Origin: a candidate division FCPU426 bacterium
Lineage (GTDB): Bacteria > Oederibacteriota > Muellerivitia > Muellerivitales > Muellerivitaceae
Assembly: GCA_963796105.1 (NCBI GenBank)
Contig: CAWCKJ010000008.1
Coordinates: 64,001-128,000, forward strand
Length of the DNA: 64,000 nucleotides
Reading direction: 5' to 3'
Shown here: positions 5,037 to 33,018 of the stretch, piece after piece
Layout of the letters: the number at the start of each line of letters is the position of its first letter
Numbering within the stretch: the stretch's first letter is position 1
Notes under the pieces: generated by a model
What the model saw: the letters and a program-made list of their open reading frames with translations, nothing else
Told to the model about the DNA's origin: nothing
Databases searched by the model: none
Translations under genes and position numbers: made by a program

Positions 5037-5180
5037 TAAATTTGAAACCTCTGAACAACTATTAAAAGGCGACCAACAGAGGTTTCGACCCCAAAGATTT
5101 CAGAAGGAAATCGTGGGGTTTCCATAAATGTTTTACTGAAAAAGGAGGTGATAGCCGACTTTTTCAGAGGTTAAAATTTA
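5037..5180. repeat. Inverted-repeat element, family A copy 1 (MITE/REP-like)
   Basis: Arms TAAATTTGAAACCTCTGAA (5037) / TTCAGAGGTTAAAATTTA (ends 5180); internal hairpin GACCCCAAAGATTTC..GAAATCGTGGGGTTTCCA shared with 16709-16845. Confidence 0.75.
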
Positions 5181-5313
5181 GCGGTCACCCAGCCTCCCTG
5201 GGAGGAGGCTGTTTCATTTCCAGATCAGCTCGCCTTACCGGAAAAAATGGTTTTTCTAGTCTCAGGCAGCCTTGAGAGACTCAGGGCGCCTTAATTTTTA
5301 ATAGGAGGATTTC

Positions 5314-6870
5314 ATGAATCGCCGCCCATCCCTTTTAACCGTCGCCTTTCTCCTGCTCGCCCTGGCGGCGGTGAGTTTCACCGCAGGAGCCGTCACCCAG
5401 TTCTCAAACAATCCCAAGGAAAGCTCCGAGAAGGTTTACCAGTACCTCCAGCCCTTCACGGAAGCCCTGGAAATCATCCGCGAGAAATACGTGGACCAGA
5501 ACAAGACCATCCCAAAGGACCTCATTTACGGGGCCTTGCAGGGAATGGTGAACACCCTGGACCCCTTCAGCGAGTTCATGCCGCCTGACGCCTACAAGGA
5601 CATGCAGACCGAGACCTCCGGGAAGTTCGGGGGTTTGGGCATTGAGATCGCCATCAAGGACGAGCGCCTGACCGTCATTTCCCCGATCGAGGGGACCCCG
5701 GCCGACCGCGCCGGCATCAAGGCGGGGGACAAGATTATGAAGATCGACGGGGACAAGACCGACCTCATGAGCATCAATGACGCCGTCAAACGCCTCCGGG
5801 GCAAGATTGGAACCAAGGTGACCGTCAGCATCGGGCGCGAGGGCCTCAATGAGGCCTTTGACGTCACGCTGGTGCGGGAAGCCATCAAAATCGAGAGCAT
5901 CCACTCCTACGTCTTGTCGGGGGGGATCGGCTATGTCCGGATCAGCGAGTTCATCGACAACACCACCGAGGATTTCGTGAACGCCGTGAACGACTTGAAA
6001 AAGAAGGAGCCCCTGAAGGGCCTGATCGTGGATTTGCGCAACGACCCGGGGGGACTGCTCAACGAGGCCGTAGGCGTCGCGGACTACTTCGGCCAGGAGG
6101 GCGTGACCATCGTTTCCACCAAGGGCCGCAGCGAGAACCAGGACCAGGTCTTTACCGCCAGGGCCGGGGACAAGTTCGAGACCAAGAAACCCGTCGTGGT
6201 CATGGTGAACGAGGGAAGCGCCTCGGGAGCCGAGATCGTCGCGGGAGCCCTGAAGGATTGGAAAAGGGCTGTCTTGATAGGTTCCAAAACCTTCGGGAAA
6301 GGGTCGGTTCAAACTATCCTGCCCCTGGACAACAGCGACGGGGCGGCCTTGAGGCTGACCATGGCCAAGTACTATACCCCTTCGGGAGTCTGTATCCATG
6401 GGATCGGAATCGAGCCGGACTTGAACCTGAAGGACCACGATATTTCGGAGTCCGCCATCAAGGCCTACAGCAAGCAAATGCCGGAAAAGTACGCCAAGGA
6501 GCTCGTGAAAAAGGGGACCGACGTCACGGCCGAGACCGAAGTGACGCCTGAGATGATGGACGGCTTCTACGATTACTGCCTGGCGAACGTGAAAAAAATC
6601 GACAAGGACGAGTTGATCAAGGACGGGGATTACCTCAAAAACAGCCTGTTGGTGGAATTAATCCGGGAGAAACTGGGAGAGAAAGACGCCAGGGAATTGG
6701 CGGTCGTCCGCGACCCGCAGGTTCTCGTGGCTAAAAGCATCATCAATGACGGCGGGAAAATCAGCCCTGAGTTGTTCGCTAAATACCCGAAGAAAAAGGA
6801 CTCGACCGAGGCCGGAGAGAGGAAGCTCGAGGAAGAGCGGCTGAAAAAGAAGAAGGATACCGAGGAGTAA
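5314..6870 (+). CDS. ctpA: S41 carboxy-terminal processing protease with PDZ domain
   Basis: GKFGGLG PDZ entry, DLRNDPGG, catalytic SASGAEI and GKGSVQ; SD AGGAGG upstream. Confidence 0.93.
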   Translation: MNRRPSLLTVAFLLLALAAVSFTAGAVTQFSNNPKESSEKVYQYLQPFTEALEIIREKYVDQNKTIPKDLIYGALQGMVNTLDPFSEFMPPDAYKDMQTETSGKFGGLGIEIAIKDERLTVISPIEGTPADRAGIKAGDKIMKIDGDKTDLMSINDAVKRLRGKIGTKVTVSIGREGLNEAFDVTLVREAIKIESIHSYVLSGGIGYVRISEFIDNTTEDFVNAVNDLKKKEPLKGLIVDLRNDPGGLLNEAVGVADYFGQEGVTIVSTKGRSENQDQVFTARAGDKFETKKPVVVMVNEGSASGAEIVAGALKDWKRAVLIGSKTFGKGSVQTILPLDNSDGAALRLTMAKYYTPSGVCIHGIGIEPDLNLKDHDISESAIKAYSKQMPEKYAKELVKKGTDVTAETEVTPEMMDGFYDYCLANVKKIDKDELIKDGDYLKNSLLVELIREKLGEKDARELAVVRDPQVLVAKSIINDGGKISPELFAKYPKKKDSTEAGERKLEEERLKKKKDTEE

Positions 6871-6891
6871 AGGCGCCGGAAAGGATTCTGC

Positions 6892-8055
6892 GTGGACCAG
6901 CAGGGAAGGACATGGGGTTTCCTGAGGACTCTGCTGGTCATTGTGCTCTTGGGGGCCGCCGCCGCCGCGGTGGTCCGATGGTACCTTTCCCCGAAACAGC
7001 GGGCGGTCCCGCCCCCTCCGATACCCACCCCCGTGGCTGGTTTTTCGGGCGACCCGGCTGAGGCCACCGAGAAACTCCGTAAAGCCTTGGATGACCGCCT
7101 CAGGGAAATGGGAATTTTGAAGCTCCTGGACAAGGAAGTCGATTCGATCCCAACCACCGTCCAAGGGAAAGTGATTAACACCTACAGGGAACGATTCCGC
7201 CTGCCGAGCCGTTACAGCCCCGACGAATTGACCTCCCTTTTGGAAGAAACAGCCAAGTCCCTGGGGGCTGGCCTAGTCGGCAAGACCTCCGGCTCCACTT
7301 CTGACAATACCGGTACCCTATACTCCGACACCTTCGCCTATAACGACCAATGGAGCCCCCTGAGAATCGAGTTCGTCGGAACCCATAAGCCCCGCGTTTG
7401 CGTCGTGATTGACGACGGGGGATACCAGAAAGGGGAAGCCCTTAGGCACCTCTACGGTTTCAAGGTGCCTGTGACTTTGGCTTTGATCCCCAGCACCGAG
7501 TTCTCCAAGGAATTGGCCGGGGACGCCCCCTCCCACGGGGTGGAAGTCATCTGCCACATGCCCATGGAGGGACTTGAGAAATTCCCGGCGGGGGCTTACC
7601 CGGAGCTTCTCAAAAGGGGATTGGACGAACCGGAAGTGGAGAAAAGAATCAACCGCGCCCTAGAGGTTCTTCCCGGCTGTGAGGGGATGAACAACCACAT
7701 GGGAAGCCTGGCCACGGCCGATGGGGGACTGATGTCCGAGGTCTGCGGGGTATTGAAAAGCCGGAAGTTATTCGTGCTGGATTCCCGAACGACGGTGGAA
7801 ACCCAGTTGGAGGGGGAAGCGGCCAAGATCCACCTCGCGCGGACCCGCAGGGATGTTTTCCTGGATAACGTCGAGACTCCGGAAGCCATTGAGAAGCAGA
7901 TGAGCAAGCTGGTAGCCCTTGCCAAGAAGCACGGGTCGGCTGTGGGTATCGGGCATTTCAAGTTGAAAAGCCTGAGGGTGCTTGAGGAAGCGGTCCATGA
8001 ATGGAGTGAAAAGGGCGTCCAATTCGTGTATCTTTCCGAGGTTGTGAAGGAATAA
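6892..8055 (+). CDS. Divergent polysaccharide deacetylase family protein (YibQ-like)
   Basis: VVIDDGG, HMPME, GMNNHMGS, LDSRT, RDVFLDN, AVGIGH motifs; N-terminal membrane anchor. Confidence 0.9.
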   Translation: MDQQGRTWGFLRTLLVIVLLGAAAAAVVRWYLSPKQRAVPPPPIPTPVAGFSGDPAEATEKLRKALDDRLREMGILKLLDKEVDSIPTTVQGKVINTYRERFRLPSRYSPDELTSLLEETAKSLGAGLVGKTSGSTSDNTGTLYSDTFAYNDQWSPLRIEFVGTHKPRVCVVIDDGGYQKGEALRHLYGFKVPVTLALIPSTEFSKELAGDAPSHGVEVICHMPMEGLEKFPAGAYPELLKRGLDEPEVEKRINRALEVLPGCEGMNNHMGSLATADGGLMSEVCGVLKSRKLFVLDSRTTVETQLEGEAAKIHLARTRRDVFLDNVETPEAIEKQMSKLVALAKKHGSAVGIGHFKLKSLRVLEEAVHEWSEKGVQFVYLSEVVKE

Positions 8056-8151
8056 GAAGTTTCTAGTAGCCGTCAAAATTAAACGAAATACAGGAACAAA
8101 GATAAATAAAATCAGATTTTTTTAAAAAGCCGTTAAGCAAAACCCAATCTT

Positions 8152-8381
8152 TTGCCACGGATTCAGGGGATGCAGGGGATACACACAAATTAACAAAACT
8201 AATGATGAACGATGATAAATAGTTTTACGATCGGGTTATATGGTTTATGCTGACGGCCGATGGAAAAATTAATTTTTCCACGGTCCACAGGCAGGACCAT
8301 ATCGCCCGTAGGACGTAAATGAAAAGCTTTTGTCACGAATTAGTCTTGTTATATCCCATGAATCCCATGCATCCGTGGCTA
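8152..8381. repeat. Inverted-repeat element, family B copy 1
   Basis: Arms TTGCCACGGATTCAGGGGATGCAGGGGATA (8152-8181) / TATCCCATGAATCCCATGCATCCGTGGCTA (8352-8381), 25/30 complementary, 9-nt periodicity; internal perfect palindrome TGGAAAAATTAATTTTTCCA at 8261-8280. Confidence 0.85.
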
Positions 8382-8425
8382 ATTATTCGTTTGAACATAG
8401 TTTGAAATTTAAGGATTTTTGAAAA

Positions 8426-9454
8426 ATGTCAAAAGACCTGGTATTGGGTATCGAGTCCTCCTGCGATGAGACTTCGGTCGCGGTTGTGGAGGACGCTTAC
8501 CGGGTCCTGTCCAACGAGACGGCCACCCAGATGGACCTCCATGAAAAGTACGGCGGGGTGGTGCCGGAAGTCGCGTCGCGAAGGCACCTGGAGAGCCTGC
8601 CTTTCCTTGTGAAGACGGCCCTGGAACGCGCCCAGGCGCGCTATGAGGATCTTTCCGGAATCGCGGTGACTTCCGCCCCCGGCCTCATTGGGGCCCTTTT
8701 GGTGGGATTCTCCGCCGCAAAGGGTCTGGCCTTGCGTTTGGGAATTCCATTCATTCCAGTTCACCATGTGGAGGCCCACCTTTATGCCGTCCGGTTGGAT
8801 TCCGATCCGATCGAATTCCCGGCGTTGGGGTTGGTCGTCTCAGGCGGCCATACTGAAATCTATCAAATCGAAAGTTGGGGAAATTATCAGCGGCTTGCCG
8901 CTACCAGGGATGACGCGGCGGGCGAGGCCTTTGACAAGGTAGCGAAGCTTTTGGGTTTGGCCTATCCCGGCGGACCCGCTTTGGAGAAACTGGCCAAGAA
9001 TTCGCCCCAGACTCCCGGCCTGTTTTCCTTGTCCAAAATGAAGGATGGGAGCCAGGATTTTTCCTTCAGCGGGGTGAAGACCGCCGTGGCTTTGGATATC
9101 CGGAAAAACCCCCCGAAAAACGACCAGGAAAAAGCAGCCCTCGCTTCCAAGTTCCAAAACACCGTCCTGGCGGAAATCCAGTTGAGGGTCCGCAGGGCAT
9201 TGGTCAGCCTCAGGCCCAAGAGCTTTCTTATGGGCGGGGGGGTGGCCTGCAACCAGGGTCTCAGGGATGTCTTGAAAAAGGAGGCCGAATCGGTCAAGGC
9301 TGTTTTCAGGGTTCCTCCCCTGAAATTCTGCTCGGATAACGCCGCCATGGTCGCGGGACTGGGGGCCTACCGGCTTTCCGAGGGCAAGTTCGCGGCATTA
9401 TCGGCCAACGCCTCAGCCTCTCCTTCCTGCGCATCCCCCTTCTTGTTACAATAA
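8426..9454 (+). CDS. tsaD: tRNA N6-threonylcarbamoyltransferase TsaD
   Basis: LGIESSCDETS, GGVVPEVASRRH, HHVEAH, VSGGHT, DDAAGEAFDK, DNAAMVA. Confidence 0.97.
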   Translation: MSKDLVLGIESSCDETSVAVVEDAYRVLSNETATQMDLHEKYGGVVPEVASRRHLESLPFLVKTALERAQARYEDLSGIAVTSAPGLIGALLVGFSAAKGLALRLGIPFIPVHHVEAHLYAVRLDSDPIEFPALGLVVSGGHTEIYQIESWGNYQRLAATRDDAAGEAFDKVAKLLGLAYPGGPALEKLAKNSPQTPGLFSLSKMKDGSQDFSFSGVKTAVALDIRKNPPKNDQEKAALASKFQNTVLAEIQLRVRRALVSLRPKSFLMGGGVACNQGLRDVLKKEAESVKAVFRVPPLKFCSDNAAMVAGLGAYRLSEGKFAALSANASASPSCASPFLLQ

Positions 9455-9458
9455 ATCC

Positions 9459-10139: not shown

Positions 10140-10154
10140 AAACCATATAACATA

Positions 10155-10464
10155 TTAACCACAGGTTCCTTCGGAACCACAAAGGGCACTGTAAGGAAAG
10201 AAATTAATATTGACTCAACTTTGGCAAATTTTGAGGACGTTGATTCTTCCCCCTTTGAAAGAGGGGGATTGAGGGGAAGTTAGACTTGTTTTGGGATTTA
10301 GCAAAAACTAATACCCCCCTATCCAACAGCGCTCATAGGGAAAAACCCCTATGTTACCCACAAACCGAAATACCCCTTTTCAAAGGGGGGAATAGCTATC
10401 TAATGTTGAGTATTGAAATATATTAACTGTGTCTCTGTGTGGTGCGAAGCACCGCTGTGGTGAA
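10155..10464. repeat. Nested inverted-repeat element (family C arms enclosing family D arms)
   Basis: Outer arms 10155-10193 / 10426-10464; inner arms TTCCCCCTTTGAAAGAGGGGG.. (10247-10283) / ..CCCCTTTTCAAAGGGGGGAA (10308-10392, split by an insert). Confidence 0.85.
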
Positions 10465-10492
10465 TAAGAATTTTTTCAGGTTCGAGGAACCA

Positions 10493-12149: not shown

Positions 12150-12168
12150 GAACTTCTAAAAAAAGGCT

Positions 12169-12683
12169 TTCACCACAGGCTGCCTTTGGCAGCGCACAGA
12201 GGCACAGCATTAATACCTTATAATACTAGGATCATAGACCTCCGAATTAAATAAAATCCAGTTTGTAAAGATAAGTAAAATCAGGATTCTAAAAGACGTT
12301 AAACAAAACCAAGTCTTTTGCCACGGATTCAGGGGATGCAGGGGGATAGCTACAAACAGATTCAACATAAACTACATTACACCACAGGTTTCTTTGAAAC
12401 CACAGTGTACACGGTTACAAAGCTAACAACTAAATTGGGGAATTAGCTTCAGATCATGACAAGGGCTAAGCCCTTGCGCCCGATGGGCGTTATGGTCAAG
12501 CCTGCGGACCGTGGAAAAATTAATTTTTCCATCGACCGTCAGTTGGACCATAGACCATGATCAAAATGCGTTTTAAATCCCATGAATCCCATGCATCTGT
12601 GGCTAGAGTCTATTTTGGAAAGATTTGTATTAGGATATTTCTTTACTGTGACTCTGTGTGGTGCGAAGCACCACTGTGGTTGA
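12169..12683. repeat. Nested inverted-repeat element (family C arms enclosing family B copy 2 and an extra C arm)
   Basis: C arms 12169-12207 / 12645-12683; B arms 12318-12348 / 12577-12605; second left C arm 12378-12415; palindrome TGGAAAAATTAATTTTTCCA at 12512-12531. Confidence 0.85.
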
Positions 12684-12712
12684 GTGAAGTTTTTTAAATT
12701 AAGGATTTAATT

Positions 12713-13627
12713 ATGCCTTCAAAAGATAACGAAAAAAACGCGGTTCAGCCTTCCACCCTTTATCTGGTAGGCACTCCCATCGGTAACTTGGAGGACATGA
12801 CCTTCCGGGCCCTGAAAACCCTCAAGGAAGTATCCCTTGTCGCGGCGGAAGATACCCGCAATAGCCTGAGGCTCATGACCCACTTCGGGATCAAACCCAA
12901 GAAGCTTATTTCCTGTTTTGAGCATAATGAGACGAAGCGGGTGGATGAGATTTTGAAGACCTTGGGGGAAGGGGGTTCGGTGGCCCTCGTGACGGACGCG
13001 GGAATGCCGGGAATCTCCGACCCGGGTTATTTGGTGGTGAAAGCCGTGTTGGGAAAGGGTTTTAGCGTCGTGCCAGTTCCAGGGGCATCGGCTCTTTTAG
13101 CGCTTTTGCCCGCTTCCGGTTTCCAGGCTTCTCCCTTCACTTTTATCGGGTTTTTACCTTCCAAGCCTGCTGAGCGTATGACGGCCCTGACCCAGATTCG
13201 TTCCGAGGAAAGAACACTCGTCTTTTTCGAGTCGCCCCACCGTTTGAGGGAAAGCCTGAAGGACATGATGAATGTTTTTGGCAACCGCCAAGCGGTCGTG
13301 GGAAGGGAACTCACCAAACTGCATGAGGAATTCATCCGGGGAACGCTTCAGGAACTTTGGAAGCATTTCAAGGCCAAGGCCCCAATAGGGGAATTTACCG
13401 TGGTTGTGGAGGGTGGTGAACGGATCGACCATTCCGACCAGGAAAAATGGGTGGGGGTTTCCATTGAGGACCAGCTCATCCAGTTTATGAACGAGGGGCA
13501 TTCCAAAACTGAGGCCGTCAAGGCCGTCTGCCGTATGCGCGATTTGCCCCGCGAGGTGGTTTATAAGATCGCAACGGAGATCAAATGGGAAGGGAAGGAA
13601 GAGCAACAGCCGGAAGCGCAAGAATGA
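12713..13627 (+). CDS. rsmI: 16S rRNA (cytidine1402-2'-O)-methyltransferase RsmI
   Basis: LYLVGTPIGNLEDMT, AAEDTR, DAGMPGISDPG, FESPHR, RELTKLHEE. Confidence 0.97.
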   Translation: MPSKDNEKNAVQPSTLYLVGTPIGNLEDMTFRALKTLKEVSLVAAEDTRNSLRLMTHFGIKPKKLISCFEHNETKRVDEILKTLGEGGSVALVTDAGMPGISDPGYLVVKAVLGKGFSVVPVPGASALLALLPASGFQASPFTFIGFLPSKPAERMTALTQIRSEERTLVFFESPHRLRESLKDMMNVFGNRQAVVGRELTKLHEEFIRGTLQELWKHFKAKAPIGEFTVVVEGGERIDHSDQEKWVGVSIEDQLIQFMNEGHSKTEAVKAVCRMRDLPREVVYKIATEIKWEGKEEQQPEAQE

Positions 13628-13741
13628 CTCGTCGGAAGGATTAGATTGGTATGAAAGAAAACCAAAATATCGAATGGAAAACATCATGGCGGGACGAGTT
13701 CCTGAAATGGATATGCGGTTTCGCCAACGCCGATGGCGGGA
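13481..13741 (+). repeat. Direct repeat copy 1: rsmI 3' end + spacer + 5' end of AlbA gene
   Basis: Aligns with 15088-15348 (offset 1607); 13586-13741 is identical. Confidence 0.95.
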
Positions 13742-15063
13742 GGCTGATTATCGGCCGTGATGATCATGGCCGCGTCACCGGTGTTGAGGACGTTGAGAAA
13801 CTCCTGGTGGATATTCCCAACAAGGTTCGCGACATCATGGGCATCATGGTGATGGTGAACCACCGCAAAAAAGCCGGGAAAGATTATTTGGAAATCGTAG
13901 TGGAACCCCACCTCTATCCTGTGAATTACAAGGGTGAATACTTCACTCGGAGTGGGAGTACCCTTCAAACTCTAAAGGGTGCGGCATTGGACCGTTTTCT
14001 TCTCCGAAAGCAAGGGAAGCATTGGGATGCAATACCGGTGGTTCACGCCTGGGTTGGGGATTTGGCCCGCGTAACGATCAACGAATTCCGAAAACGCGCC
14101 CGCGAGAGCCGGCGCCTGGAACCGGCAATACTCAAGGAACCGGCGCAAGGCCTTATCGAAAAACTACACCTTCTGGATGGAAAACATCTCAAGAAGGCGG
14201 CTGTGCTGTTGTTCCACCCCGATCCGGAGAATTTCGTCACCGGAGCCTTCGTTAAAATCGGTTTTTTCCGCACCAACGACGATCTTCTTTACCATGACGA
14301 GATTCACGGTGACCTTTTCAGCCAGGTGGACAAGACCCTGGAACTGCTTACAACCAAATACTTAAAGGCAGGCATCAGCTATCGGGGCGTGCAGAGGGTG
14401 GAGACGCTGCCCGTACCCGATGCCGCCTTAAGGGAGGCGGTCCTCAACGCGGTTATCCACAAGGACTACGCGAGCGGCACTCCCATCCAGATCAGCGTTT
14501 ATGACGACAAGCTGATGATTTGGAATCCCGGCGAACTGCCCCCCGCTTGGACGGTAGCGAAACTCAAAAGTAAGCATTCTTCCAAGCCTTTCAACCCCGA
14601 TGTGGCCAACGCCTTTTTTCGGGCGGGAATGATCGAGGCCTGGGGCCGGGGCATCGAACGCATTTTGGGTGCCTGCCGGGACGCTGGGTTCAGTGAGCCC
14701 CGGTTCGAATATGAGCATACCGGCCTTTGGGTGGAATTCCGGTTCTCCAAGGAAATCGTTAAAAAGAGTTTCGAACACCAGCCAGGGTTGGGGCTAGAGT
14801 CGAGGCTAGAGTCGAGGCTAGAGTCGAGGCTAGAGTCGTTGGAACAACGCGCGCTTAAGGCATTGTGGAAAAATCCTTTGGGCAAAGGTGCCCTTGCGAA
14901 GGTATTGGGACAGAAACAGGCTTCAGGCGGACTTCATAACGCTATTCGGCGGCTTTTGGAAAAACATTTTATTGAGCGCACCATTCCCGGCAAGCCCAAC
15001 AGCCGTTTGCAGGAATACCGCGTCACTGAAGAAGGAAAGACCTATTTGTCATCGAAAAGCTAA
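13651..15063 (+). CDS. AlbA_2/Schlafen-domain protein with HATPase_c_4-like domain and C-terminal HTH
   Basis: ENQNIEWK..GFANADGG (AlbA_2); ALREAVLNAVIHKDY, WNPG, IEAWGRG; C-terminal RTIPGKPNSRLQEYR. Confidence 0.85.
   Translation: MKENQNIEWKTSWRDEFLKWICGFANADGGRLIIGRDDHGRVTGVEDVEKLLVDIPNKVRDIMGIMVMVNHRKKAGKDYLEIVVEPHLYPVNYKGEYFTRSGSTLQTLKGAALDRFLLRKQGKHWDAIPVVHAWVGDLARVTINEFRKRARESRRLEPAILKEPAQGLIEKLHLLDGKHLKKAAVLLFHPDPENFVTGAFVKIGFFRTNDDLLYHDEIHGDLFSQVDKTLELLTTKYLKAGISYRGVQRVETLPVPDAALREAVLNAVIHKDYASGTPIQISVYDDKLMIWNPGELPPAWTVAKLKSKHSSKPFNPDVANAFFRAGMIEAWGRGIERILGACRDAGFSEPRFEYEHTGLWVEFRFSKEIVKKSFEHQPGLGLESRLESRLESRLESLEQRALKALWKNPLGKGALAKVLGQKQASGGLHNAIRRLLEKHFIERTIPGKPNSRLQEYRVTEEGKTYLSSKS
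14792..14838 (+). repeat. In-frame 12-bp tandem repeat GGCTAGAGTCGA x ~4 (LESR)
   Basis: Three full units and one 11-nt unit read directly. Confidence 0.95.
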
Positions 15064-15348
15064 GATGTTGGTTAGTGGACGCTGGTGCAGTTTATGAACG
15101 AGGGGCATTCCAAGACCGAGGCCGTCAAGGCTGTCTGCCGAATGCGCGGCTTGCCCCGCGAGGTGGTCTATAAGATCGCGACAGAGATTAAGTGGGAAGG
15201 GAAGGAAGAGCAACAGCCGGAAGCGCAAGAATGACTCGTCGGAAGGATTAGATTGGTATGAAAGAAAACCAAAATATCGAATGGAAAACATCATGGCGGG
15301 ACGAGTTCCTGAAATGGATATGCGGTTTCGCCAACGCCGATGGCGGGA
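15055..15348 (+). repeat. Direct repeat copy 2 (recombinant of copies 1 and 3)
   Basis: 15100-15209 identical to 16580-16689; 15193-15348 identical to 13586-13741. Confidence 0.95.
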
Positions 15349-15392
15349 AGCTTTTGATCGAATTGATGCTGAGCGGGAGTGGAACAGTATGA
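15258..15392 (+). pseudogene. 44-aa stub of the AlbA gene 5' end, stop overlapping the DUF1016 start
   Basis: MKENQNIEWKTSWRDEFLKWICGFANADGGKLLIELMLSGSGTV*; TGA at 15390-15392 overlaps ATG 15389. Confidence 0.8.
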
Positions 15393-16447
15393 GGAAAACG
15401 CGGAAAAATATTTTGAAAAATAACCAGCTTGCCGACGGGTACAAGACTTTGCTTGCGGAGGTGAAAAAGCGTGTTCGGGACGCCCAATACCAAGCCCTCA
15501 AGGCCGTCAACAAGGAATTAATCGGTCTTTATTGGGACATCGGTCAAATGATCCATGAACGCCAGAAAGGGAAGACTTGGGGTAAAGCCGTCGTCCCCCG
15601 GTTGGCGTCGGATCTTCAAAAGGAATTCCCCGGAATCAGCGGTTTTTCTTCCCAGAATTTATGGCGCATGCGGCAGTTTTACGAAACCTACCGGTTAAAG
15701 CCAAAACTCTCACCATTGGTGAGAGAAATTGGTTGGACGCACAATGTCATCATAATGATGCATTGCAAGGACGCGTTGGAGTGTGAGTTTTATATCCGCA
15801 TGACCCGAAAATACGGGTGGTCCAAGAACGTCCTGGCTTTGAAGATTGACGCAAAAACATACGAAAGCACCCTTTTGAATCAAACGAACTTCAATAAAAC
15901 CCTACCTGAGAAAATCCGGAACCAAGCTAAGCTGGCCGTGAAGGACGAATACACCTTCGATTTCCTGGAATTGGGGGAAGAACACGCTGAGCGTGAATTG
16001 GAGGCGGCGATCTTATCGAAAGTTGAAAAGTTCCTGGCCGAGATGGGCGGTAAATTCGCTTTTATGGGGAGTCAGTACCGGCTGGAAGTCGGGGAAAAAG
16101 AATATTTCATCGACTTGCTTCTTTACCACCGGGGCCTTAAATGCCTGGTGGCTTTGGAATTGAAAGTGGGCGAGTTCAAGCCCGAGTACGTTGGGAAGAT
16201 GCAGTTTTACCTGGCGGCCCTGGATGGTAAAACGCGTATTAAGGGGGAAAACCCTTCCATTGGCATGATCCTTTGCAGGACTAAGGACAGGGCCATCGTG
16301 GAATACGCTCTCAAGGAAAGCAGGAAGCCCATAGGGGTCGCTGCCTACCGCATAGTCCACAAACTACCGAAAAATCTGGCCGGCCATCTGCCCGATCCTG
16401 CCCAGGTCGAGAAAATGCTCATGAAGATAGACGATGGGGGCGGGTGA
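15389..16447 (+). CDS. DUF1016 / YhcG PD-(D/E)XK nuclease-domain protein
   Basis: AVNKELIGLYWDIG, GFSSQNLWRMRQFY, KDEYTFDFL, IDLLLYH..ALELK, GKMQFY. The 15281 start lies within the duplicated stub, so 15389 is preferred. Confidence 0.92.
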   Translation: MRKTRKNILKNNQLADGYKTLLAEVKKRVRDAQYQALKAVNKELIGLYWDIGQMIHERQKGKTWGKAVVPRLASDLQKEFPGISGFSSQNLWRMRQFYETYRLKPKLSPLVREIGWTHNVIIMMHCKDALECEFYIRMTRKYGWSKNVLALKIDAKTYESTLLNQTNFNKTLPEKIRNQAKLAVKDEYTFDFLELGEEHAERELEAAILSKVEKFLAEMGGKFAFMGSQYRLEVGEKEYFIDLLLYHRGLKCLVALELKVGEFKPEYVGKMQFYLAALDGKTRIKGENPSIGMILCRTKDRAIVEYALKESRKPIGVAAYRIVHKLPKNLAGHLPDPAQVEKMLMKIDDGGG

Positions 16448-16534
16448 TTCCGTGAAACAGCGAGAGATGTTTTCGCAAGGGGAATAGTCAAAACCCATCG
16501 ACCCTTCGATAAACTCTGAACCATAAAGCTCTTT

Positions 16535-16711
16535 AAAAGCTAAGATATCGTTTAGTGGATGCTGGTCCAGTTCATAAAAGAGGGGCATTCCAAGACCGAG
16601 GCCGTCAAGGCTGTCTGCCGAATGCGCGGCTTGCCCCGCGAGGTGGTCTATAAGATCGCGACAGAGATTAAGTGGGAAGGGAAGGAAGAAAACCAGGCAG
16701 ACGTGGATTAG
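16535..16711 (+). repeat. Direct repeat copy 3: rsmI 3' end with alternative tail (possible 50-aa ORF 16559-16711)
   Basis: Aligns with 15055-15209 (offset 1480); encodes MLVQFIKEGHSKTEAV...WEGKEENQADVD*. Confidence 0.9.
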
Positions 16712-16845
16712 CAGGCTGCTGAAAAAGTAAAAAATAGGCCCACAAAGCAGCCTGCGACCCCAAAGATTCCGCAGGAATCGTAGGGTTTCCAAAAATGTCA
16801 TCAGCTGAAAAAGTCCGTTTTGGGGACTTTTTTAGCAACCTGTTA
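16709..16845. repeat. Inverted-repeat element, family A copy 2
   Basis: Arms TAGCAGGCTGCTGAAAAAGT / ACTTTTTTAGCAACCTGTTA; same internal GACCCCAAAGATT..AATCGTAGGGTTTCCA hairpin as 5086-5124. Confidence 0.8.
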
Positions 16846-16927
16846 GGGCCAAGCCTTGAAAATGACGCAAGTGATGAAAAAAGATTTGAAGAAAAAACTG
16901 TGATGCCGATTTCAAGACCTGACCTTT

Positions 16928-17269
16928 GTGTCTGTTAAAGGGAAAATTAGGGGGAAGCATCACCATGAGGCGCACAGGGAACAACAGAAATTGGGCTTGC
17001 CGGATGCCGAGGAAACGCTGAAAAAGATCGGGAAAATGCATGGGATTATGGTGAAAGATATGGTGGTTCCGACCCGGCGGAAAAACGAAGGGCGGGAAGC
17101 GGCGGTATGGGCCTTGCGTCAGATATGCCGATTAAGTTTAGGGGAAGTGGCAAAGAAGATGGGGGTAAAATACTCTGCGGTAAGCCATGGGGTGGCAAGG
17201 ATGAAGAAACGCATTCGTGAGGAAAAGGGTCTTGAGGAAAAGATTCGTAATGCCGTTTTCAAGACCTGA
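16928..17269 (+). pseudogene. C-terminal HTH (DnaA_C-like) fragment, probably of a Y1/RAYT-like transposase gene
   Basis: R-EAAVWALRQICRLSLGEVAKKMGVKYSAVSHGVARM pattern ending FKT*; no HUH motif in the fragment; flanked by 22-bp direct repeats. Confidence 0.55.
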
Positions 17270-17274
17270 CCCTA

Positions 17275-17514: not shown

Positions 17515-17524
17515 GGTTCTAAGA

Positions 17525-26897: not shown

Positions 26898-27018
26898 TTC
26901 CGCATCGAAAACTCGAAGTGGAATGCGATTAACGAATAAATTGCGATTCCTTTGGAAAACCCTATGGGGTAAATCCCCGACTAAAAAAAGATAGCCTGCC
27001 CCTGGAAAAAACGCTGTA

Positions 27019-29388
27019 ATGAAAACCATGAAATGGCCCTTTAGCAATCACAAGCGGTTCGTCCTCTGGTTTTTACTTTGCCTGCTCGGGTTTTATGTCC
27101 TGCTCCGCGCCGCGCCTGTTCCGCTCAAAAAACTTCACGGCGACTATTCCACGGCCTACCTGGCTTCCGATGGAAGCCTTTTGCGTCTTACCCTTTCCAG
27201 AAGCGGCAAGTACCGCCTACCCTTGAGGCTCGATGAAATCTCGCCCCAAGTTGTCCGGGGCTTCACGGCCTACGAGGACCGGTGGTTTTTCTGGCATTAC
27301 GGTGTGAACCCCGTGGCTTTGCTCCGGGCCCTCATCTTGGATTTGACGCACCACAAGATCCTCTCGGGAGCTTCCACCATTACCATGCAGGTGGCCAAGC
27401 TGATGGACCGCAGGCCCAGGACTTTCTGGGCCAAGGGGATCGAGGCATTCCGGGCCATGCAGTTGGAGGCCCGCTATTCCAAGAAACAAATCCTCGAGTT
27501 CTACCTGAACAGCGTCCCCATGGGGGGGAACATCGAGGGAGTGGGGGCGGCGTCGCTTCTTTACTTCGGCAAGCCGGCCAAGCTGCTTTCCTGGGGCGAA
27601 ACTGCCCTTTTGATCAGTCTTCCCCGGTCGCCCGCGGCGAGGCGGCCTGACCGATTCCCGGAAAAGGCGAGGGAGGGAAGGGACAAGGTCCTTGGACAAA
27701 TCCTTCCTATTGTAAAGCCTCCCCAAAGCGAGGCGGAAGAGGCCTACCATTCCATCCTGCCAAAAGGCCGGTATTTAAATCCCAACCCCGCTCCCAACCT
27801 GGTTGAAAGGGCGGCCCAATTATCCAGCCATGCCCCTGGGGTGGTCCAGACGGCCTTGCGGCCCAATTTGCAGGGGTTGGCGATGAAAATGCTGGTGAGT
27901 GCCGTCGCTCCCATAAGAAATCAGGGGGTCCATAACGGAGCGGTCATTATGGTGGACAACCATACGATGAAAGTAGTGGCTTACGTGGGAAGCCCGGATT
28001 TTCACGACTCCCAGGGAGGACAGGTGAACGGGGCCAACATCCCCCGGTCGCCGGGATCGGCCTTAAAACCTTTCCTGTACGGATTGGCGATGGACCGCGG
28101 GTTGATCACGCCTAAGACCATGCTATTCGATATTCCGCGCGATTACGGCGGTTTTAAACCGGCCAATTATGAGGGCAAATACGGCGGGCTGGTTCCGGCG
28201 GAGGACGCCTTGGCCCGTTCCCTGAACATTCCCGCAGTGGGGTTGGAATCCAGCTTGGAATCCATGGGTAACGACGGTTTGGAATTCTGGATCAAGCAAG
28301 CCGGTTGTATCGGGCGGGATCGGGGCCAACTGGAACCTGGATTGTCAGTGGTGTTAGGGGCCTATCCCATGACGGTGGAGGAAATGGTCCGGATTTACGC
28401 GGCCCTGGCCAATGGAGGAAGAATGAGAAGCCTGAGGTTTTTTGAGGATGAGTCCCAAGTCCCGGAGAAGGGAAAGGAGGTTCTTTCCCGGGAAGCCAGC
28501 TACATGGTTTCCGAAATGCTGGCCAAGGTGGAGAGGACGGATATTCCCGCCTCCTGGGAATTTTCCCCCACCCGCGGCAAAGTGGCCTTTAAGACCGGCA
28601 CTTCTTTCGGCCATCGAGACGCCTGGTGCGTCGGATATAACCCGGATTACACCATCGGAGTCTGGCTCGGCAACACGGATAACCAGGGGTCGCCCGCCTT
28701 GATCGGCCATGATGCCGCGGCCCCGGTGGTCATCAATCTCTTCAACGCCCTGACCCGATCCAATGATTCCTGGTTCCAGAGGCCGCCGGGAGTCCAGAAC
28801 CGGAAAATTTGCGCCCTCTCGGGCCAGCCCACGGGCGAGGATTGCAAGGACGTGATCGAGGACATGTTCATACCGGGCGTCAGCGACAACCATCCCTGCC
28901 AGGTTCACCGGAAAGTTTGGATCAGGAAAAAGGACGGAAAAGAGGTTTGCCGCTATTGCATGACGGGCAAACCCGAGGAGTATTACTCCAAAATTTACGA
29001 GATTTGGCCTCCCGACGTGACGCGGTACCTCAGGAGCCACGGTAAAAAATTCGAGGCCATCCCCAGGCATAATCCCGATTGCGCGTATTTCTACTCCCGC
29101 TTCACGCCCCATATCCAATCGCCCAAATCCGATGGGAAATATGAGATTCAGCAGGGGATACCCCTGGAAGGCCAGAGGATGACGTTTTCGGTCCAAGCTG
29201 GCCCGGACGTGGACGAGGTTTATTGGTTCGTGAACGGACGGCTTGTGGGACAGGGAAAACCAGACAAGCTCTTTTTTTGGATCCCTGAACAGGGAAAGTG
29301 GGAGGTCTCGGTATTGGATTCCCAGGGCCGCGCAGACAAGGTGAATATCCTGGTTTTCGACAAGAAGCTGGAGGGTAAAAAGCAATAA
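27019..29388 (+). CDS. pbpC: Penicillin-binding protein 1C
   Basis: EDRWF, GASTITMQVAK, SPGSALKPF, SLN, KTGTS, C-terminal BiPBP-like domain; follows the A2M gene. Confidence 0.95.
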   Translation: MKTMKWPFSNHKRFVLWFLLCLLGFYVLLRAAPVPLKKLHGDYSTAYLASDGSLLRLTLSRSGKYRLPLRLDEISPQVVRGFTAYEDRWFFWHYGVNPVALLRALILDLTHHKILSGASTITMQVAKLMDRRPRTFWAKGIEAFRAMQLEARYSKKQILEFYLNSVPMGGNIEGVGAASLLYFGKPAKLLSWGETALLISLPRSPAARRPDRFPEKAREGRDKVLGQILPIVKPPQSEAEEAYHSILPKGRYLNPNPAPNLVERAAQLSSHAPGVVQTALRPNLQGLAMKMLVSAVAPIRNQGVHNGAVIMVDNHTMKVVAYVGSPDFHDSQGGQVNGANIPRSPGSALKPFLYGLAMDRGLITPKTMLFDIPRDYGGFKPANYEGKYGGLVPAEDALARSLNIPAVGLESSLESMGNDGLEFWIKQAGCIGRDRGQLEPGLSVVLGAYPMTVEEMVRIYAALANGGRMRSLRFFEDESQVPEKGKEVLSREASYMVSEMLAKVERTDIPASWEFSPTRGKVAFKTGTSFGHRDAWCVGYNPDYTIGVWLGNTDNQGSPALIGHDAAAPVVINLFNALTRSNDSWFQRPPGVQNRKICALSGQPTGEDCKDVIEDMFIPGVSDNHPCQVHRKVWIRKKDGKEVCRYCMTGKPEEYYSKIYEIWPPDVTRYLRSHGKKFEAIPRHNPDCAYFYSRFTPHIQSPKSDGKYEIQQGIPLEGQRMTFSVQAGPDVDEVYWFVNGRLVGQGKPDKLFFWIPEQGKWEVSVLDSQGRADKVNILVFDKKLEGKKQ

Positions 29389-29428
29389 ACAGAGGGGGAA
29401 GATTAATAAAATCAATAGACCGCAGGTG

Positions 29429-30414
29429 TATGTTTATGCACAAAGTGACCGTGCTGTAATGGGTTTTGCTAAGGCACATGCGGTCAAAGCACGGTGAAAT
29501 AAGGAATCGGGATCATGACGACGGTTGAACCGATAGGCATATTCACTTAGATACCGGCCTAAATACTTAGCATCAACGCCATGATGAGTTCCAATGATCC
29601 AGGCCTTGGCGTTGGAAATGAACCGGTGTACCCAGGGCAACCAACTTTCCAACTCTTTCGGGTCATTGGCCATCACCCGGTAGTCTGCCTCCACTCCTTT
29701 GAGTTCACGCAAGGCTGGCGAAGCATCTGTGTTGAGGAAAGAGCCTTTTTCCATAGTCTGATTCACGAATTCCTGGCTCTCCCACTTGGTTTCCATAGCT
29801 ACCTTCACCTTGGCAAAACCCGCTTTTTCCTTCTTGCAACCATTCTCATCCACCCATTCCTTGCTTTCCACCGCCACCAAGACTTCCACTTGGTTTTCCT
29901 TGGCCTTTTTCCCAAAAACCGCCCCATCCAACTCAATGACGCCCTTTAGAGTATAGCTTTCGTCCTTTTGCCTAAGACCTTCCCGGATCTTATGCAATAG
30001 AAGCCATGCCGAATGATCCGAAAGATTTAAATGCCGCTTCAGTTCCAGGGCCGAAATACCCCGTTTGCCCTGCATCATCAAACTGATGGCCCTGACCCAG
30101 GTTAAAAGAGGCAGCTTGGAGCTTTCAAAAATCGTCCCGGCGCGAAGCCGAAGACGTTTCCGGCAATAGTCACATTCCCTCACTTCAGGCTTGGCCTGGT
30201 GTTGCCAGAAGCTTTCGCCCTCACATTGGGGACAAACAAAGTCTTTCCCGCCGAAACGGCATCTCCACACCCATTGGCGGGCTTCTTCTTCCGTGTGGAT
30301 TTTCCTCAGAATTTTAATGCTTTTCATCCGCTGGTAGCTCATGTACCACCTCCCGTAGCGGACAGTATACCTATGTATTCCTTTATTTCAAGGGTCACTT
30401 AATACAGAAGCATG
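29429..30414 (-). mobile_element. IS1595 family (ISSod11-like) element, copy 1, 986 bp
   Basis: 8-bp TSD CGCAGGTG at 29421-29428 and 30415-30422; imperfect terminal inverted repeats. Confidence 0.95.
29434..30342 (-). CDS. IS1595 family transposase
   Basis: CPQC..ECDYC Zn ribbon, IELDG, NTD, LPWVH, YLSEYAYRFNRR. Confidence 0.95.
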   Translation of the reverse strand: MSYQRMKSIKILRKIHTEEEARQWVWRCRFGGKDFVCPQCEGESFWQHQAKPEVRECDYCRKRLRLRAGTIFESSKLPLLTWVRAISLMMQGKRGISALELKRHLNLSDHSAWLLLHKIREGLRQKDESYTLKGVIELDGAVFGKKAKENQVEVLVAVESKEWVDENGCKKEKAGFAKVKVAMETKWESQEFVNQTMEKGSFLNTDASPALRELKGVEADYRVMANDPKELESWLPWVHRFISNAKAWIIGTHHGVDAKYLGRYLSEYAYRFNRRHDPDSLFHRALTACALAKPITARSLCA

Positions 30415-30424
30415 CGCAGGTGCT

Positions 30425-30454
30425 TTGTACAAAGGCAAACAATTTTTATATGAT
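30425..30454 (+). promoter_or_regulatory. Candidate sigma70 promoter for the M50-phoH-pdxA-rsmA operon
   Basis: TTGTAC-N18-TATGAT. Confidence 0.5.
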
Positions 30455-30505
30455 ATTTATCGGTAAAAAGAGTTGTTGTAACTTTTCCTCGAAAAGGCGG
30501 AAGAA

Positions 30506-31204
30506 TTGTCGATTAAGAAAAACCTGACCTCATTCCTGATAAAGCTGATCCTGGGTGTTCTTTTGCTTTGGCTGTGCGGCGGGATGGGGGTGGTCCTGGG
30601 AAAAGCCTACACGCGCCTGCCCTGGTCCGACAGGACCACCTGGGTCTTTTTCATCGGCTTCGGGTCTTACCTCATCCTGCACTTCGTCCTGTATAAACCC
30701 ATCCTGAGCCACGTGATGGCCCACGAATTGACCCACGCCCTGGCCGCCGTCCTCATGGGAGGAAAAGTCACGGCCATCCACGCCACCACGAGCGGCGGTT
30801 CCACCACCGTCAATAAGTCCAACATTCTCATCAGTTTGGCGCCTTACATATTCCCCCTTTACACGGTTGTAACCGTGGGGTTGTACTTGTTGGCGGCACA
30901 GCCGTTCAAGATTTACCTGATGGGGCTCATAGGTTTTACCTACGCATTCCACCTGGCGCTGACCGCTTATTCCCTGACTCACCCCCAGACCGACTTGAAG
31001 GAGGGTGGGATGGCGTTTTCCTTGATTTTCATTTTGGCGGGAAATATGATTGGTGCAATGCTACTGACCTCACTTGTTTGGCCGCAAGTATTGCCCCTTT
31101 CCAGCGCGTTTCCTGAAACGTTTCGATGGTCCTGGCGGCTGGCCCTTGGAACGTACCATTGGTTCAAGCCGCATCCCATCCCCCCGGAGGCCCATGTCCC
31201 ATGA
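30506..31204 (+). CDS. M50-like membrane metallopeptidase
   Basis: HELTH (HExxH) in hydrophobic context, LAPY motif, downstream TD. Confidence 0.75.
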   Translation: MSIKKNLTSFLIKLILGVLLLWLCGGMGVVLGKAYTRLPWSDRTTWVFFIGFGSYLILHFVLYKPILSHVMAHELTHALAAVLMGGKVTAIHATTSGGSTTVNKSNILISLAPYIFPLYTVVTVGLYLLAAQPFKIYLMGLIGFTYAFHLALTAYSLTHPQTDLKEGGMAFSLIFILAGNMIGAMLLTSLVWPQVLPLSSAFPETFRWSWRLALGTYHWFKPHPIPPEAHVP

Positions 31205-32529
31205 AAAAAACTTTTGTATTGGACACGAACGTATTGATCCACAATCCGAAGGCCATCGAGTCCTTCGCGGACAATATCGTGGTCATTCCTCTGGGGGTCA
31301 TCGAGGAGCTGGATACCTTCAAGAAATACCAGGATGAGCGGGGGAGGAACGCCCGTGAGGTGGCGCGCCTTTTGGATGATCTACGTTTAAAGGGCCATTT
31401 GCCGGAGGGGGTGCCGCTTCCCAACGGGGGCCTCTTGAAAGTGGATATAAGCACCCCCAACGGCCATTTGCCGGCGTCGCTTTCCGGAATGAAGATCGAT
31501 AACAACATTATTGGCATAGCTTTGGCCCTGAAACAAAAGGGCGAGAACGTCCATTTCGTCACCAAGGACATCAACGTCAGGGTCAAGGCGGACGCCTTGG
31601 GCGTGGAAGCCGAAGATTTCGAGACCAATAAGGTCAACATTGACGAGTTATACGCGGGATGGGCCACCCTGACAGTGGGGGACGCCCAAATCGACGAATT
31701 CTACAAGACTGGAAAGCTATCCATTCAGGACCGCTTGGCCGATAACGTCTTTTACGAGAACCAGTTCCTGCTATTGAAAAGCGATATCCATGAGACCAAG
31801 ACGGCCCGAGGTGTTTACCGCGAGGGCTTGAAGGAAGTCCAAGCCCTCTGGTTCAAGGACCCGGAGGCCTGGGGGATCAAGGCCCTGAACCTGGAGCAAA
31901 ATTTCGCCTTGAACCTGCTTTTAAACGACCGAATCACCATCGTGACCCTGGTGGGAACAGCCGGCACTGGAAAAACCCTCCTGGCCCTTGCGGCGGGACT
32001 CTTGAAAACCATGGACGAGAAAAAATACCGCCGGATCCTGGTATCCCGGCCCATCGTGCCTTTGGGCAAGGACATCGGCTTCCTGCCCGGTTCCAAGGAC
32101 GAGAAGCTCACCAACTGGATGCAGCCCATTTTCGACAATTTGGAGTTCATCCTGGACAAGGGCCACCTCCAAAATGAGGCGGAGGACGTGGACGACAAGG
32201 TCCAATACCTCCTGGATTCCCACAAGCTGGAACTGGAGGCCCTTACCTATATCCGGGGCCGGTCCATCCCCAAGCAGTTCATGATCGTGGACGAGGCCCA
32301 GAACCTCACCCCCCATGAGATCAAGACCATCGTTTCCCGCGCTGGCGTGGGCACCAAGATCATCCTTACTGGCGACCCCTACCAGATCGACAATCCCTAC
32401 TTGGATTCCTCCTCCAACGGCATCGTGTACCTGGCCGAGAGGTTCAAGGGGAACGAGATGTTCGGGCATGTCACCCTCTCCAAGAGCGAGCGCTCCCCGC
32501 TGGCGGCGCTAGCGGCGAAAGTACTATAA
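31201..32529 (+). CDS. PhoH2 family protein (PIN + PhoH ATPase)
   Basis: FVLDTNVL, VTKDINVRVKA, GTAGTGKT, YIRGRS, DEAQN, GDPYQID; ATGA overlap with the upstream gene. Confidence 0.95.
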   Translation: MKKTFVLDTNVLIHNPKAIESFADNIVVIPLGVIEELDTFKKYQDERGRNAREVARLLDDLRLKGHLPEGVPLPNGGLLKVDISTPNGHLPASLSGMKIDNNIIGIALALKQKGENVHFVTKDINVRVKADALGVEAEDFETNKVNIDELYAGWATLTVGDAQIDEFYKTGKLSIQDRLADNVFYENQFLLLKSDIHETKTARGVYREGLKEVQALWFKDPEAWGIKALNLEQNFALNLLLNDRITIVTLVGTAGTGKTLLALAAGLLKTMDEKKYRRILVSRPIVPLGKDIGFLPGSKDEKLTNWMQPIFDNLEFILDKGHLQNEAEDVDDKVQYLLDSHKLELEALTYIRGRSIPKQFMIVDEAQNLTPHEIKTIVSRAGVGTKIILTGDPYQIDNPYLDSSSNGIVYLAERFKGNEMFGHVTLSKSERSPLAALAAKVL

Positions 32530-32533
32530 AAGG

Positions 32534-33018
32534 CAATTTTGAATTATGAATTTTGAATTATAAATTGATGTAGATTTTCAAAATGCGAAAATCAGGACAT
32601 TTTATTGGTGGCCCAAAAACAAAATATAATTCAAACCAAATCCTTCAATTTCGCGTTAAAGATTGTCAAACTTTGTAAAACACTTCAAAGGACCTCTGAG
32701 TTTCTCGCGTCCAAGCAATTATTCAGGTCTGGAACAAGCATCGGGGCAAACATTGAAGAAGCATTAGCGGCCGCAAGTCGAAAAGATTTCGCCTCGAAGA
32801 TGACGATTGCCTTGAAAGAAGCCCGGGAGACCCTATATTGGCTTCGATTGATCCAAGAATCTCAGTTGGTTGAGGGAAACTACTCGTCACAAATTAGTGA
32901 CATAACAGAAATAATAAAAATCCTGACGTCTATTGTTAAAACGACGGTTGAAAAATCATGAAAAAAAGCAAAGCTTTTTCACATCAATTCATAATTCATA
33001 ATTCAAAATTCAAAATTG
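32534..33018. repeat. Heptamer-repeat inverted arms flanking the four-helix-bundle gene
   Basis: 32534-32571 and 32981-33018 are reverse complements at 35/38 positions; units TGAATT(A/T). Confidence 0.92.
32605..32961 (+). CDS. Four helix bundle protein (23S rRNA IVP / bAvd-like family)
   Basis: KSFNFAL, QLFRSGTSIGANIEEA, IALKEARETLYWL. Confidence 0.92.
   Translation: MVAQKQNIIQTKSFNFALKIVKLCKTLQRTSEFLASKQLFRSGTSIGANIEEALAAASRKDFASKMTIALKEARETLYWLRLIQESQLVEGNYSSQISDITEIIKILTSIVKTTVEKS

Follow-up and report, generated by a model that had tools for sequence, protein, structure and literature searches.

What put six AT-rich spacers, each bounded by inverted arms, between the genes of compact operons? 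The question is raised by a stretch of 64,000 nucleotides from a candidate division FCPU426 bacterium (GenBank assembly GCA_963796105.1, contig CAWCKJ010000008.1, positions 64,001 to 128,000), here called the window. An initial annotation, made from the sequence alone, had described the spacers as parts of one modular cassette system, which would target junctions of co-transcribed core genes and gain or lose small cargo genes. We find instead that they are stacked, independent mobile repeats of several families, all gene-less except one. Two of these families (A1 and A2) are ordinary miniature inverted-repeat transposable elements (MITEs) of the IS5 type. The others are, judged by their arms, gene-less forms of cassettes that carry small genes in related genomes: families B and C of GxxExxY cassettes, family D of DUF559 cassettes, and the heptamer family of four-helix-bundle cassettes. 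On balance, we think that B, C, D and the heptamer family are stripped cassettes; the small protein of each would probably recognise its own arms, folded as single strands, and spread them with no transposase involved.

Anatomy of the spacers

All six spacers (5037-5180, 8152-8381, 10155-10464, 12169-12683, 16709-16845 and 32534-33018) lie where the annotation had placed them, and they are AT-rich as claimed, with a GC content of 0.35-0.45 against about 0.55-0.60 in the flanking genes. Their folding beats that of mononucleotide shuffles (z from -4.1 to -6.7), and that of the first four also beats dinucleotide shuffles (z from -4.3 to -8.3; -7.97 for 12169-12683). A search of the window against Rfam gave zero matches. 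Arms of families A, B, C, D and of the heptamer type are all present, and so are the nestings that had been described: B around module E, C around D, and C around B around E. One small gene (32605-32961) is found in the six spacers, and no transposase within any of them. The neighbouring genes are envC and ctpA, a divergent polysaccharide deacetylase gene and tsaD, mgtC and dusB, a PAP2 gene and rsmI, and phoH and pdxA. The description as a spacer of a housekeeping operon does not apply to 16709-16845, which lies in an inserted region, preceded by a third copy of the rsmI 3' end and followed by a fragment of a Y1 transposase element of the TIRYT type.

The spacer between the divergent polysaccharide deacetylase gene and tsaD is an empty family B cassette (8154-8379), with the 9-mer arms of GxxExxY cassettes and a conserved AT-rich outer flank that extends upstream of the left arm. 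Nested in it is module E (8229-8341), a branched palindrome of 112-113 nt with GATC ends. Between mgtC and dusB, an empty family C cassette (10158-10461), which has ACCAC-type arms of GxxExxY cassettes, surrounds an empty family D cassette (10249-10390), whose pyrimidine-purine-purine arms are those of one DUF559 clade and resemble BoxC and triplex motifs. The same spacer contains the left arm of a family J element (10214-10229; 34 matches of at least 15 nt in the host genome); J often encloses D, and its right arm is here a remnant near 10405. In the right arm of D lies module F, a hairpin of about 46 nt on the minus strand (10327-10372; 23 matches of at least 25 nt in the host genome); copies of A1 and A2 contain it as well. 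A further empty C cassette (12172-12680), which separates the PAP2 gene from rsmI, contains a nested B cassette (12320-12603), and the latter includes a lone C-type arm (from 12381) and a second module E (12452-12562), inverted relative to the copy at 8229-8341.

Arms and their small protein families

The evidence for the pairing of arms and genes comes from 31 genomes of the host family, in which the best 30 loci per protein family were fetched; for the four-helix-bundle proteins of the 23S-IVP family (IVP hereafter), four weak loci and one with a short flank were left out. Inverted arms flank 29 of 30 GxxExxY genes (PF13366/TIGR04256), 29 of 30 DUF559 genes (PF04480) and 22 of 25 IVP genes (PF05635/TIGR02436), against 1.5% of 200 random genes of the window's own genome (G000; 4.98 Mb, 96.8% complete). 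These three partners had been named in the annotation, and correctly so. The arms of GxxExxY genes are arrays of 8-9-mers, B and C among them, and those of IVP genes are heptamer or octamer arrays; among the DUF559 loci, five have D arms and 21 of the 30 have a flank matching the TM-ECO consensus. Arms belonging to different protein families match each other in 0-1% of pairs. Moreover, the two arms of a gene are each other's best partners at 15 of 30 GxxExxY loci and 16 of 25 IVP loci, and at only 6 of 30 DUF559 loci.

Trees were built after arm labels had been assigned. The B-armed GxxExxY proteins (seven rows, seven genomes) form one clade with support of 100/100, and so do the D-armed DUF559 proteins (five rows, four genomes; 100/97, three fragmentary rows having been left out). 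In G000, G013 and G073, members of the other clade in these trees are present as well, and the protein clades of the IVP family track the heptamer type. Since the protein clades follow the arm type and not the host, the gene is a dedicated partner rather than swappable cargo and travels with its arms as a unit; clustering on a tree is insufficient alone as proof of co-evolution. The exchangeable cargo of the annotation is not borne out, because each arm type goes with one protein clade. Working from the three protein families outward, no case was found of the same arms around unrelated genes, as in integron-like cassettes. The B-arm pattern gave seven matches in viral contigs, none with a closing arm or a GxxExxY gene, which are taken as chance.

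Besides their pairing with genes in relatives, the arm families recur across the host genome. Profile searches of G000, for which genes were called with a simple in-house caller and pairing was counted by script, yielded 60 A1, 22 A2, 140 B, 144 C, 95 D and 91 heptamer arms; they pair into 165 elements, nearly all of them gene-less, and just 3 of 589 arms of at least 16 bits lie inside long genes. The genome has two IVP genes, both within heptamer arms that differ in sequence, and two GxxExxY genes, one in B arms and one among C arms. In addition, a small GIY-YIG gene (contig C4, 166527-166745; locus L267) is flanked on both sides by CGTC-type inverted arms, in a cassette like those of the Ssn system discussed below. 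Its flanks do not match the degenerate published SRM pattern, which has 36 matches elsewhere in G000.

Family A

Family A had been counted as one family at two loci; the two share a core and are sister families, A1 and A2. The A1 copy between envC and ctpA (5044-5174) is framed by AATTT at 5039-5043 and 5175-5179, and the A2 copy (16712-16842) by TTAG at 16708-16711, where it forms the stop codon of the duplicated rsmI 3' end, and at 16843-16846. Target-site duplications, reported as not evident, are thus present at both. A variable 5-bp duplication is seen in 10 of 18 distinct A1 copies, the window copy included, against 1.3 expected. The A1 end is also the terminal repeat of seven 1171-bp IS5 elements in genome G071, and the one open reading frame (ORF) checked among them matches the IS5 model NF033581 above cut-off. 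For A2, an exact search of the genome collection with the arm gave 121 stretches, 80 of them with DNA fetched. A partner arm was present at 43 of these 80 loci, 16 of the resulting elements measuring 1.3-1.8 kb, and the ORFs of 15 of the 16 match NF033581, 14 of them above cut-off. The C or T of the flanking YTAG agrees between left and right in 42 of 43 cases (TAG itself is part of the search pattern).

Because transposase-bearing elements elsewhere end in the same arms and the window copies have target duplications, A1 and A2 are ordinary IS5-type MITEs and do not belong to a cassette system; for family A, this is the very outcome that the annotation had named as refuting its model. They share with IS5-family insertion sequences (ISs) and their MITEs the identical terminal repeats, the target duplications and the short, non-coding, high-copy form; no difference is essential, and A1 and A2 carry in addition inserted hairpin modules (F, G and others). 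Five A2-type queries detected only two weak fragments of a cognate transposase in G000, the A1-type protein not being among the queries. A2-type MITEs that enclose C-like or CGTC-type hairpin elements occur at L158, L190 and L205; these lie in other phyla, and therefore the nesting of such repeats in IS5 MITEs extends beyond this lineage.

The filled cassette between phoH and pdxA

The single gene-bearing cassette of the window consists of a left heptamer arm (32537-32559, plus strand), a gene for a four-helix-bundle protein of 118 aa (32605-32961, plus strand) and a right heptamer arm (32986-33015, minus strand). The product belongs to the 23S-IVP/S23p family (TIGR02436, PF05635) and is about 50% identical to the solved protein 2RLD. 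The gene is conserved under purifying selection, with dN/dS of about 0.04 to the same-genus genome G001.

Among 16 genomes, the phoH-pdxA junction has an IVP cassette in five, is empty in eight and holds another element in three. The five IVP proteins form one clade (92/91) and their hosts are scattered on the PhoH tree (four changes); therefore either one old insertion was repeatedly lost or the cassette re-entered the same site. Between G000 and G001 the cassette is 96% identical, with dS of 0.17 against 0.71 for phoH, 1.0 for pdxA and a genome median pS of 0.55, and the identity is 92-98% over 32200-33000 and 71-74% directly past the right arm. These figures give only a hint of recent exchange of the cassette, or of its homing into the junction, because 8% of control genes show a rise equal to that at the phoH 3' end, and near-identity of the two genomes is seen at some element-free spacers too. 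Five of 150 sampled genes and several element-free spacers differ little or not at all between G000 and G001, which points to recent DNA exchange.

Turnover of the junctions

Filled, empty and absent alleles all occur, which supports the annotation in this respect, and elements come and go fast at orthologous junctions. The operon is compact in relatives: the PAP2 gene overlaps rsmI in 11 of 16 genomes, the mgtC-dusB gap is at most 19 bp in 7 of 10, and the dpd-tsaD gap measures 2-6 bp in 4 of 15. Elsewhere among the relatives, these junctions have different hairpin families. The comparison with G001 covered about 1.2 Mb of 4.4 Mb, within which elements occupy 63 of the 389 orthologous spacers, the family being shared at just seven. 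At the dpd-tsaD junction, occupied by family B in the window, one relative (L025, genome G006) has a 719-bp insert with apparently two small ORFs and no hairpin arms noted.

Arms are found at 8.7% of co-oriented junctions in G000, at 13.9% of convergent and at 9.8% of divergent ones. Without an excess at co-oriented junctions, the empty elements have no preference for operon junctions, and the suggested targeting of co-transcribed core genes is not supported. The gene-bearing cassettes of relatives lie in sense to both neighbours in 56 cases and in antisense to both in three, with 15 mixed and 12 unscored; such a bias is consistent with a need for transcription by the host. The orientation bias of empty copies is weak (B 28 against 16; module G, described below, 18 against 23). 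There is no signal of a 5-bp duplication near B, C, D and E arms (1/15, 1/18, 1/9 and 1/9, respectively) as compared with 10/18 for A1; the heptamer family gives 3/7, with repeat-like matches. Family B continues past its arms into conserved flanks, which are ragged and on the left reach at most about 90 nt, and for this reason its true ends are not fixed.

Nested modules

Much of the nesting is accounted for by smaller modules. One of them, module G, enters the arms of other elements exactly at YG. It is a unit of 76-81 nt made of two side-by-side hairpins, which also occurs in tandem arrays; the window copy (34910-34988, plus strand), between rsmA and glmS and outside the range of the initial annotation, follows a TG inside a CGTC-type arm. 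A strict detector found 75 units at 67 sites of G000, and a hidden Markov model profile 190 loci. Excising G with one YG kept restores a sequence that is present elsewhere in G000 at 52 of the 67 sites (38 with at least three matches), and four other excision registers matched at 0 sites. The detector had the terminal motif and the G of YG built in and the pyrimidine not, and this pyrimidine is present in 31 of 31 distinct targets. In 74 of 75 units the dinucleotide on the left is the same as that on the right, though many copies have spread along with their host element. Moreover, an orthologous B arm (pair 61) is empty in G001 and carries G at the exact YG register in G000.

A B, C, heptamer or E arm is touched at 40 of the 67 sites, and the others are in A, F and CGTC arms. 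Targets fall in predicted stems in 46% of cases against 28% for random TG (39 and 120 sites), which is a modest effect. Across 60 distinct units, the arms of G pair with their own partner at 0.89/0.83 and crosswise at 0.82/0.73, the detector having required pairing. Of 30 relatives in the family, 24 have the module; among 68 further genomes of the phylum it is seen in two, and only weakly. At two loci of G001 (pairs 0 and 59), G stands exactly at a start codon, with ATG on both sides, and the G000 counterpart is without G. Five units of G000 (C2:103509, C2:154128, C2:160930, C2:161268 and C2:164526) have an extra piece of about 55 nt between the two hairpins; with its CAGG-like ends and TA on both sides it resembles, by eye, a small IS5-type MITE.

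Module E has about 37 copies in G000 and none in G001; 30 relatives gave one weak match and no autonomous form. The one metagenome match in the search for an autonomous G is another empty unit, at a TG in a C arm. Y1 transposases were rejected as movers, since the arms are absent from all 30 Y1 loci taken from across the family; none of these 30 loci carries G either, so that no RAYT gene flanked by G was seen among them, and G064, G069 and G073, which are incomplete genomes, contain G without a PF01797 match. The multi-copy IS families of G000 were likewise rejected as a source of G or E, their ends being unlike both. For IS110 (one match in G000) and serine recombinases (two matches) no link to the arm families was drawn. 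The 16 PF01797 matches of G000 comprise 14 TIRYT-type elements of about 318 aa, with GGGGTCAG-type ends of their own, and two IS200-like ones. TIRYT elements lie at 16928-17269 of the window and at C2:159178, C3:193643, C3:665009, C7:100369 and C11:133902 of G000, among others; several of them directly adjoin tandem-repeat arrays of differing units, and one adjoins an 8-copy array of G.

Proposed mechanism and alternative explanations

We regard B, C, D and the heptamer family as Ssn- or REPtron-like elements, in which the small protein likely acts on folded single-stranded arms. That the arms are recognised in this form we infer from a published precedent: according to Chenal et al. (2025; PMC11893778), SsnA cuts single-stranded DNA beside a flanking hairpin and cuts neither double-stranded DNA nor RNA. 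In the mechanism we propose, a protein with a nuclease fold would bind its cognate folded arm and nick single-stranded DNA beside it, as SsnA does at the NTS hairpin, after which the segment between the arms would be copied to a new site by repair or recombination of the host, and copies without a gene would move in trans. Not being a nuclease, the four-helix-bundle protein, whose fold weakly matches Avd, may be a binder or adaptor, with the cutting done by a separate partner. Nicking and repair copying would explain the missing target duplications and the ragged outer ends of B, and gene-bearing cassettes would survive mainly in sense because they borrow the transcription of the operon. As for nesting, a compact operon may offer an incoming element no larger harmless target than an element already present, and G would additionally favour other elements' arms.

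Several observations weigh against this mechanism. No DUF559 gene was found in G000 (96.8% complete), despite its 37 paired D elements, and the sole B-armed GxxExxY gene of this genome appears frameshifted near its start; the proposed movers are therefore not intact there now. No site was seen at which the same arms are kept and the gene is lost, and no mover of modules E, F, G and J was found. A small nuclease alone leaves insertion at new, non-homologous sites unexplained, and the IVP protein is not even a nuclease. The loci behind the pairing are the 30 top-scoring ones per family, from related genomes that are not independent, and the search for target duplications reached 19 nt outside the arms, beyond which B extends. 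Finally, the sense strand of GxxExxY arms has more G.U than A.C pairs (45:23, with p 0.01 as one of nine tests), which fits RNA too.

A wider proposal, which we advance tentatively and think more probably wrong than right, is that a broad and undescribed class of transposase-free mobile DNA exists. In it, at least four unrelated small folds (PD-(D/E)XK GxxExxY, Vsr-like DUF559, GIY-YIG and Avd-like four-helix bundle) would each read their own folded single-stranded arms sequence-specifically, drive bursts of hundreds of gene-less copies and home into the same operon junctions across species; a 77-nt twin-hairpin element, by exact recombination at YG in their stems, would in turn parasitise them.

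The rival that survives best, though we hold it to be unlikely, places the elements at the RNA level. The arms would be transcript stems, as in the intervening sequences (IVSs) of 23S rRNA, cut by RNase III or bound by protein, and would spread via an RNA step or be kept for the processing of operon mRNA. The heptamer cassette is indeed built like the Coxiella IVS, with a 28-bp terminal stem, heptamer repeats and an S23p ORF (PMC4990558). The 56:3 sense orientation of filled cassettes speaks for this view as well, and so does the G.U excess of the GxxExxY arms, which has the same trend in empty B copies (27:16, p 0.13). Moreover, the model of the window protein weakly matches the Avd chains of ribonucleoprotein structures of diversity-generating retroelements (TM 0.72-0.75, E 0.14-0.19). 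However, neither DUF559 arms (38:42) nor IVP arms (38:37) show the G.U bias, and the empty copies lack a preference for junction type and are only weakly biased in orientation. Sense and antisense fold about equally, and SsnA is inactive on RNA (PMC11893778). In addition, G000 (96.8% complete) has 0 matches to the reverse transcriptase model PF00078, which also sets it apart from a diversity-generating retroelement.

Equally to be doubted, and in our judgement improbable, is that the small genes are passengers and that the hairpins are moved by one shared enzyme of the host or of a mobile element, either RAYT-like or recombination-based. In favour of it, G000 has many D and B elements and an intact cognate gene for neither, no catalytic activity is known for the IVP protein, and long linkage alone would make the arm type follow the protein clade. 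Yet four unrelated arm designs each keep to one protein family, three of them with nuclease folds, and such arms are found at 0 of 30 Y1-transposase loci of the host family. A GIY-YIG member of the design is, moreover, known to recognise its own arms (PMC11893778).

It is very unlikely that all families are plain MITEs of insertion sequences as yet unmatched. This is true for A1 and A2, and G000 is rich in ISs (56 IS1595-type copies and others). For B, C, D and the heptamer family it is largely refuted: their arms enclose non-transposase genes in relatives, no duplication signal lies within 19 nt of B, C and D arms, and no multi-copy IS family of G000 with definable ends has such termini. The single modular system of the initial annotation, although nesting is real and common and different families repeatedly strike conserved operon junctions, is the least credible of all, as A is IS-derived, cargo is clade-specific and co-oriented junctions show no excess.

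Relation to known systems and significance

For cassettes whose proteins would act on their own arms, one of the closest known systems is Ssn with its SRM/NTS repeats (PMC11893778): a small single-domain nuclease gene between hairpin repeats, which are also gene-less in many copies, and no transposase. A mobile element or a domesticated one is what its authors propose. In the present cassettes, the place of GIY-YIG (cd10448) is taken by GxxExxY, DUF559 and four-helix-bundle proteins; the arms consist of 7-9-mers in periodic arrays or of triplex-like motifs, and several families nest. That paper contains no mention of DUF559 or four-helix-bundle proteins. With the 23S rRNA IVS (S23p; PMC4990558), the heptamer cassette shares an inverted heptamer-repeat stem around a PF05635 four-helix-bundle gene; it differs in lying between phoH and pdxA rather than in rRNA and in having dispersed empty forms.

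Module G would work like a REPIN or a tail-to-tail REP dimer that is moved by dinucleotide-specific strand transfer. Like the REP, REPIN and BIME repeats with RAYT (PMC8266576, PMC3733652, PMC6006769), it is an intergenic, high-copy doublet of inverted hairpins with a conserved mismatch, tandem arrays and a fixed end dinucleotide, YG; TnpA-Mb cuts at CT and CA (PMC8266576). Unlike them, G has no GTAG or CGTC tag, its inner junction being GTAC/GTAT-like, and it prefers the arms of other elements; no G-flanked RAYT was seen among the 30 Y1 loci.

The DUF559 loci resemble the BoxC, PIT and TM-ECO triplex repeats of Holder et al. (2015; PMC4666352). At 21 of the 30 loci a flank matches the TM-ECO consensus with a second loop of 2-4 nt, and 50 of 74 D arms are built as pyrimidine-loop-purine-loop-purine, a build that would fit a triplex; D arms are nevertheless unlike the TM-ECO letter consensus, and DUF559 goes unmentioned in that paper. 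Heptamer direct repeats were described by MacGregor (2015; PMC4679880), without mention of four-helix-bundle or IVS genes. A full-text literature search gave nothing on TIGR02436, and the GxxExxY papers listed, judged by their listing, are not about repeats. With combined terms, the matches listed hold the Ssn and rRNA-IVS cases only (the search took in main texts; supplements might carry flank surveys).

Published relatives therefore already exist in Ssn/SRM, the ORF-bearing 23S IVS, REP/RAYT, BoxC and IS5 MITEs, and the novelty is limited, since one family consists of ordinary MITEs and the GIY-YIG and rRNA-IVS cases have been published. What is added here is the sorting of five arm families side by side in one operon, their pairing with proteins at the level of clades, and the exact insertion register of G. 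No function is known for the GxxExxY, DUF559 and 23S-IVP families, although they are very common, and no origin for the heptamer, 9-mer and BoxC-type repeats, which are common too. The clade-for-clade pairing gives each protein a predicted substrate, which turns a long-open question into a simple binding and cutting assay, as was done for Ssn. It also explains the turnover of compact operon junctions within a genus, in one bacterial family. If the wider proposal is true, GxxExxY and DUF559 would be new families of site-specific single-stranded DNA nucleases, whose targets can be read from their flanks.

Other features of the window

The 3' end of rsmI is present in three copies (13448-13627, 15055-15234 and 16535-16711), one of them after each of a Schlafen/AlbA-RecG-C gene (13651-15063) and a DUF1016/YhcG gene (15281-16447), and both genes look like successive insertions at the end of rsmI. 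In 12 relatives, an M50-like gene follows rsmI; in the window it is at 30506. An IS1595-family transposase, one of 56 similar copies in G000, lies at 29434-30342, and 46000-64000 is a long region of low GC content (0.32-0.52 per 500 nt).

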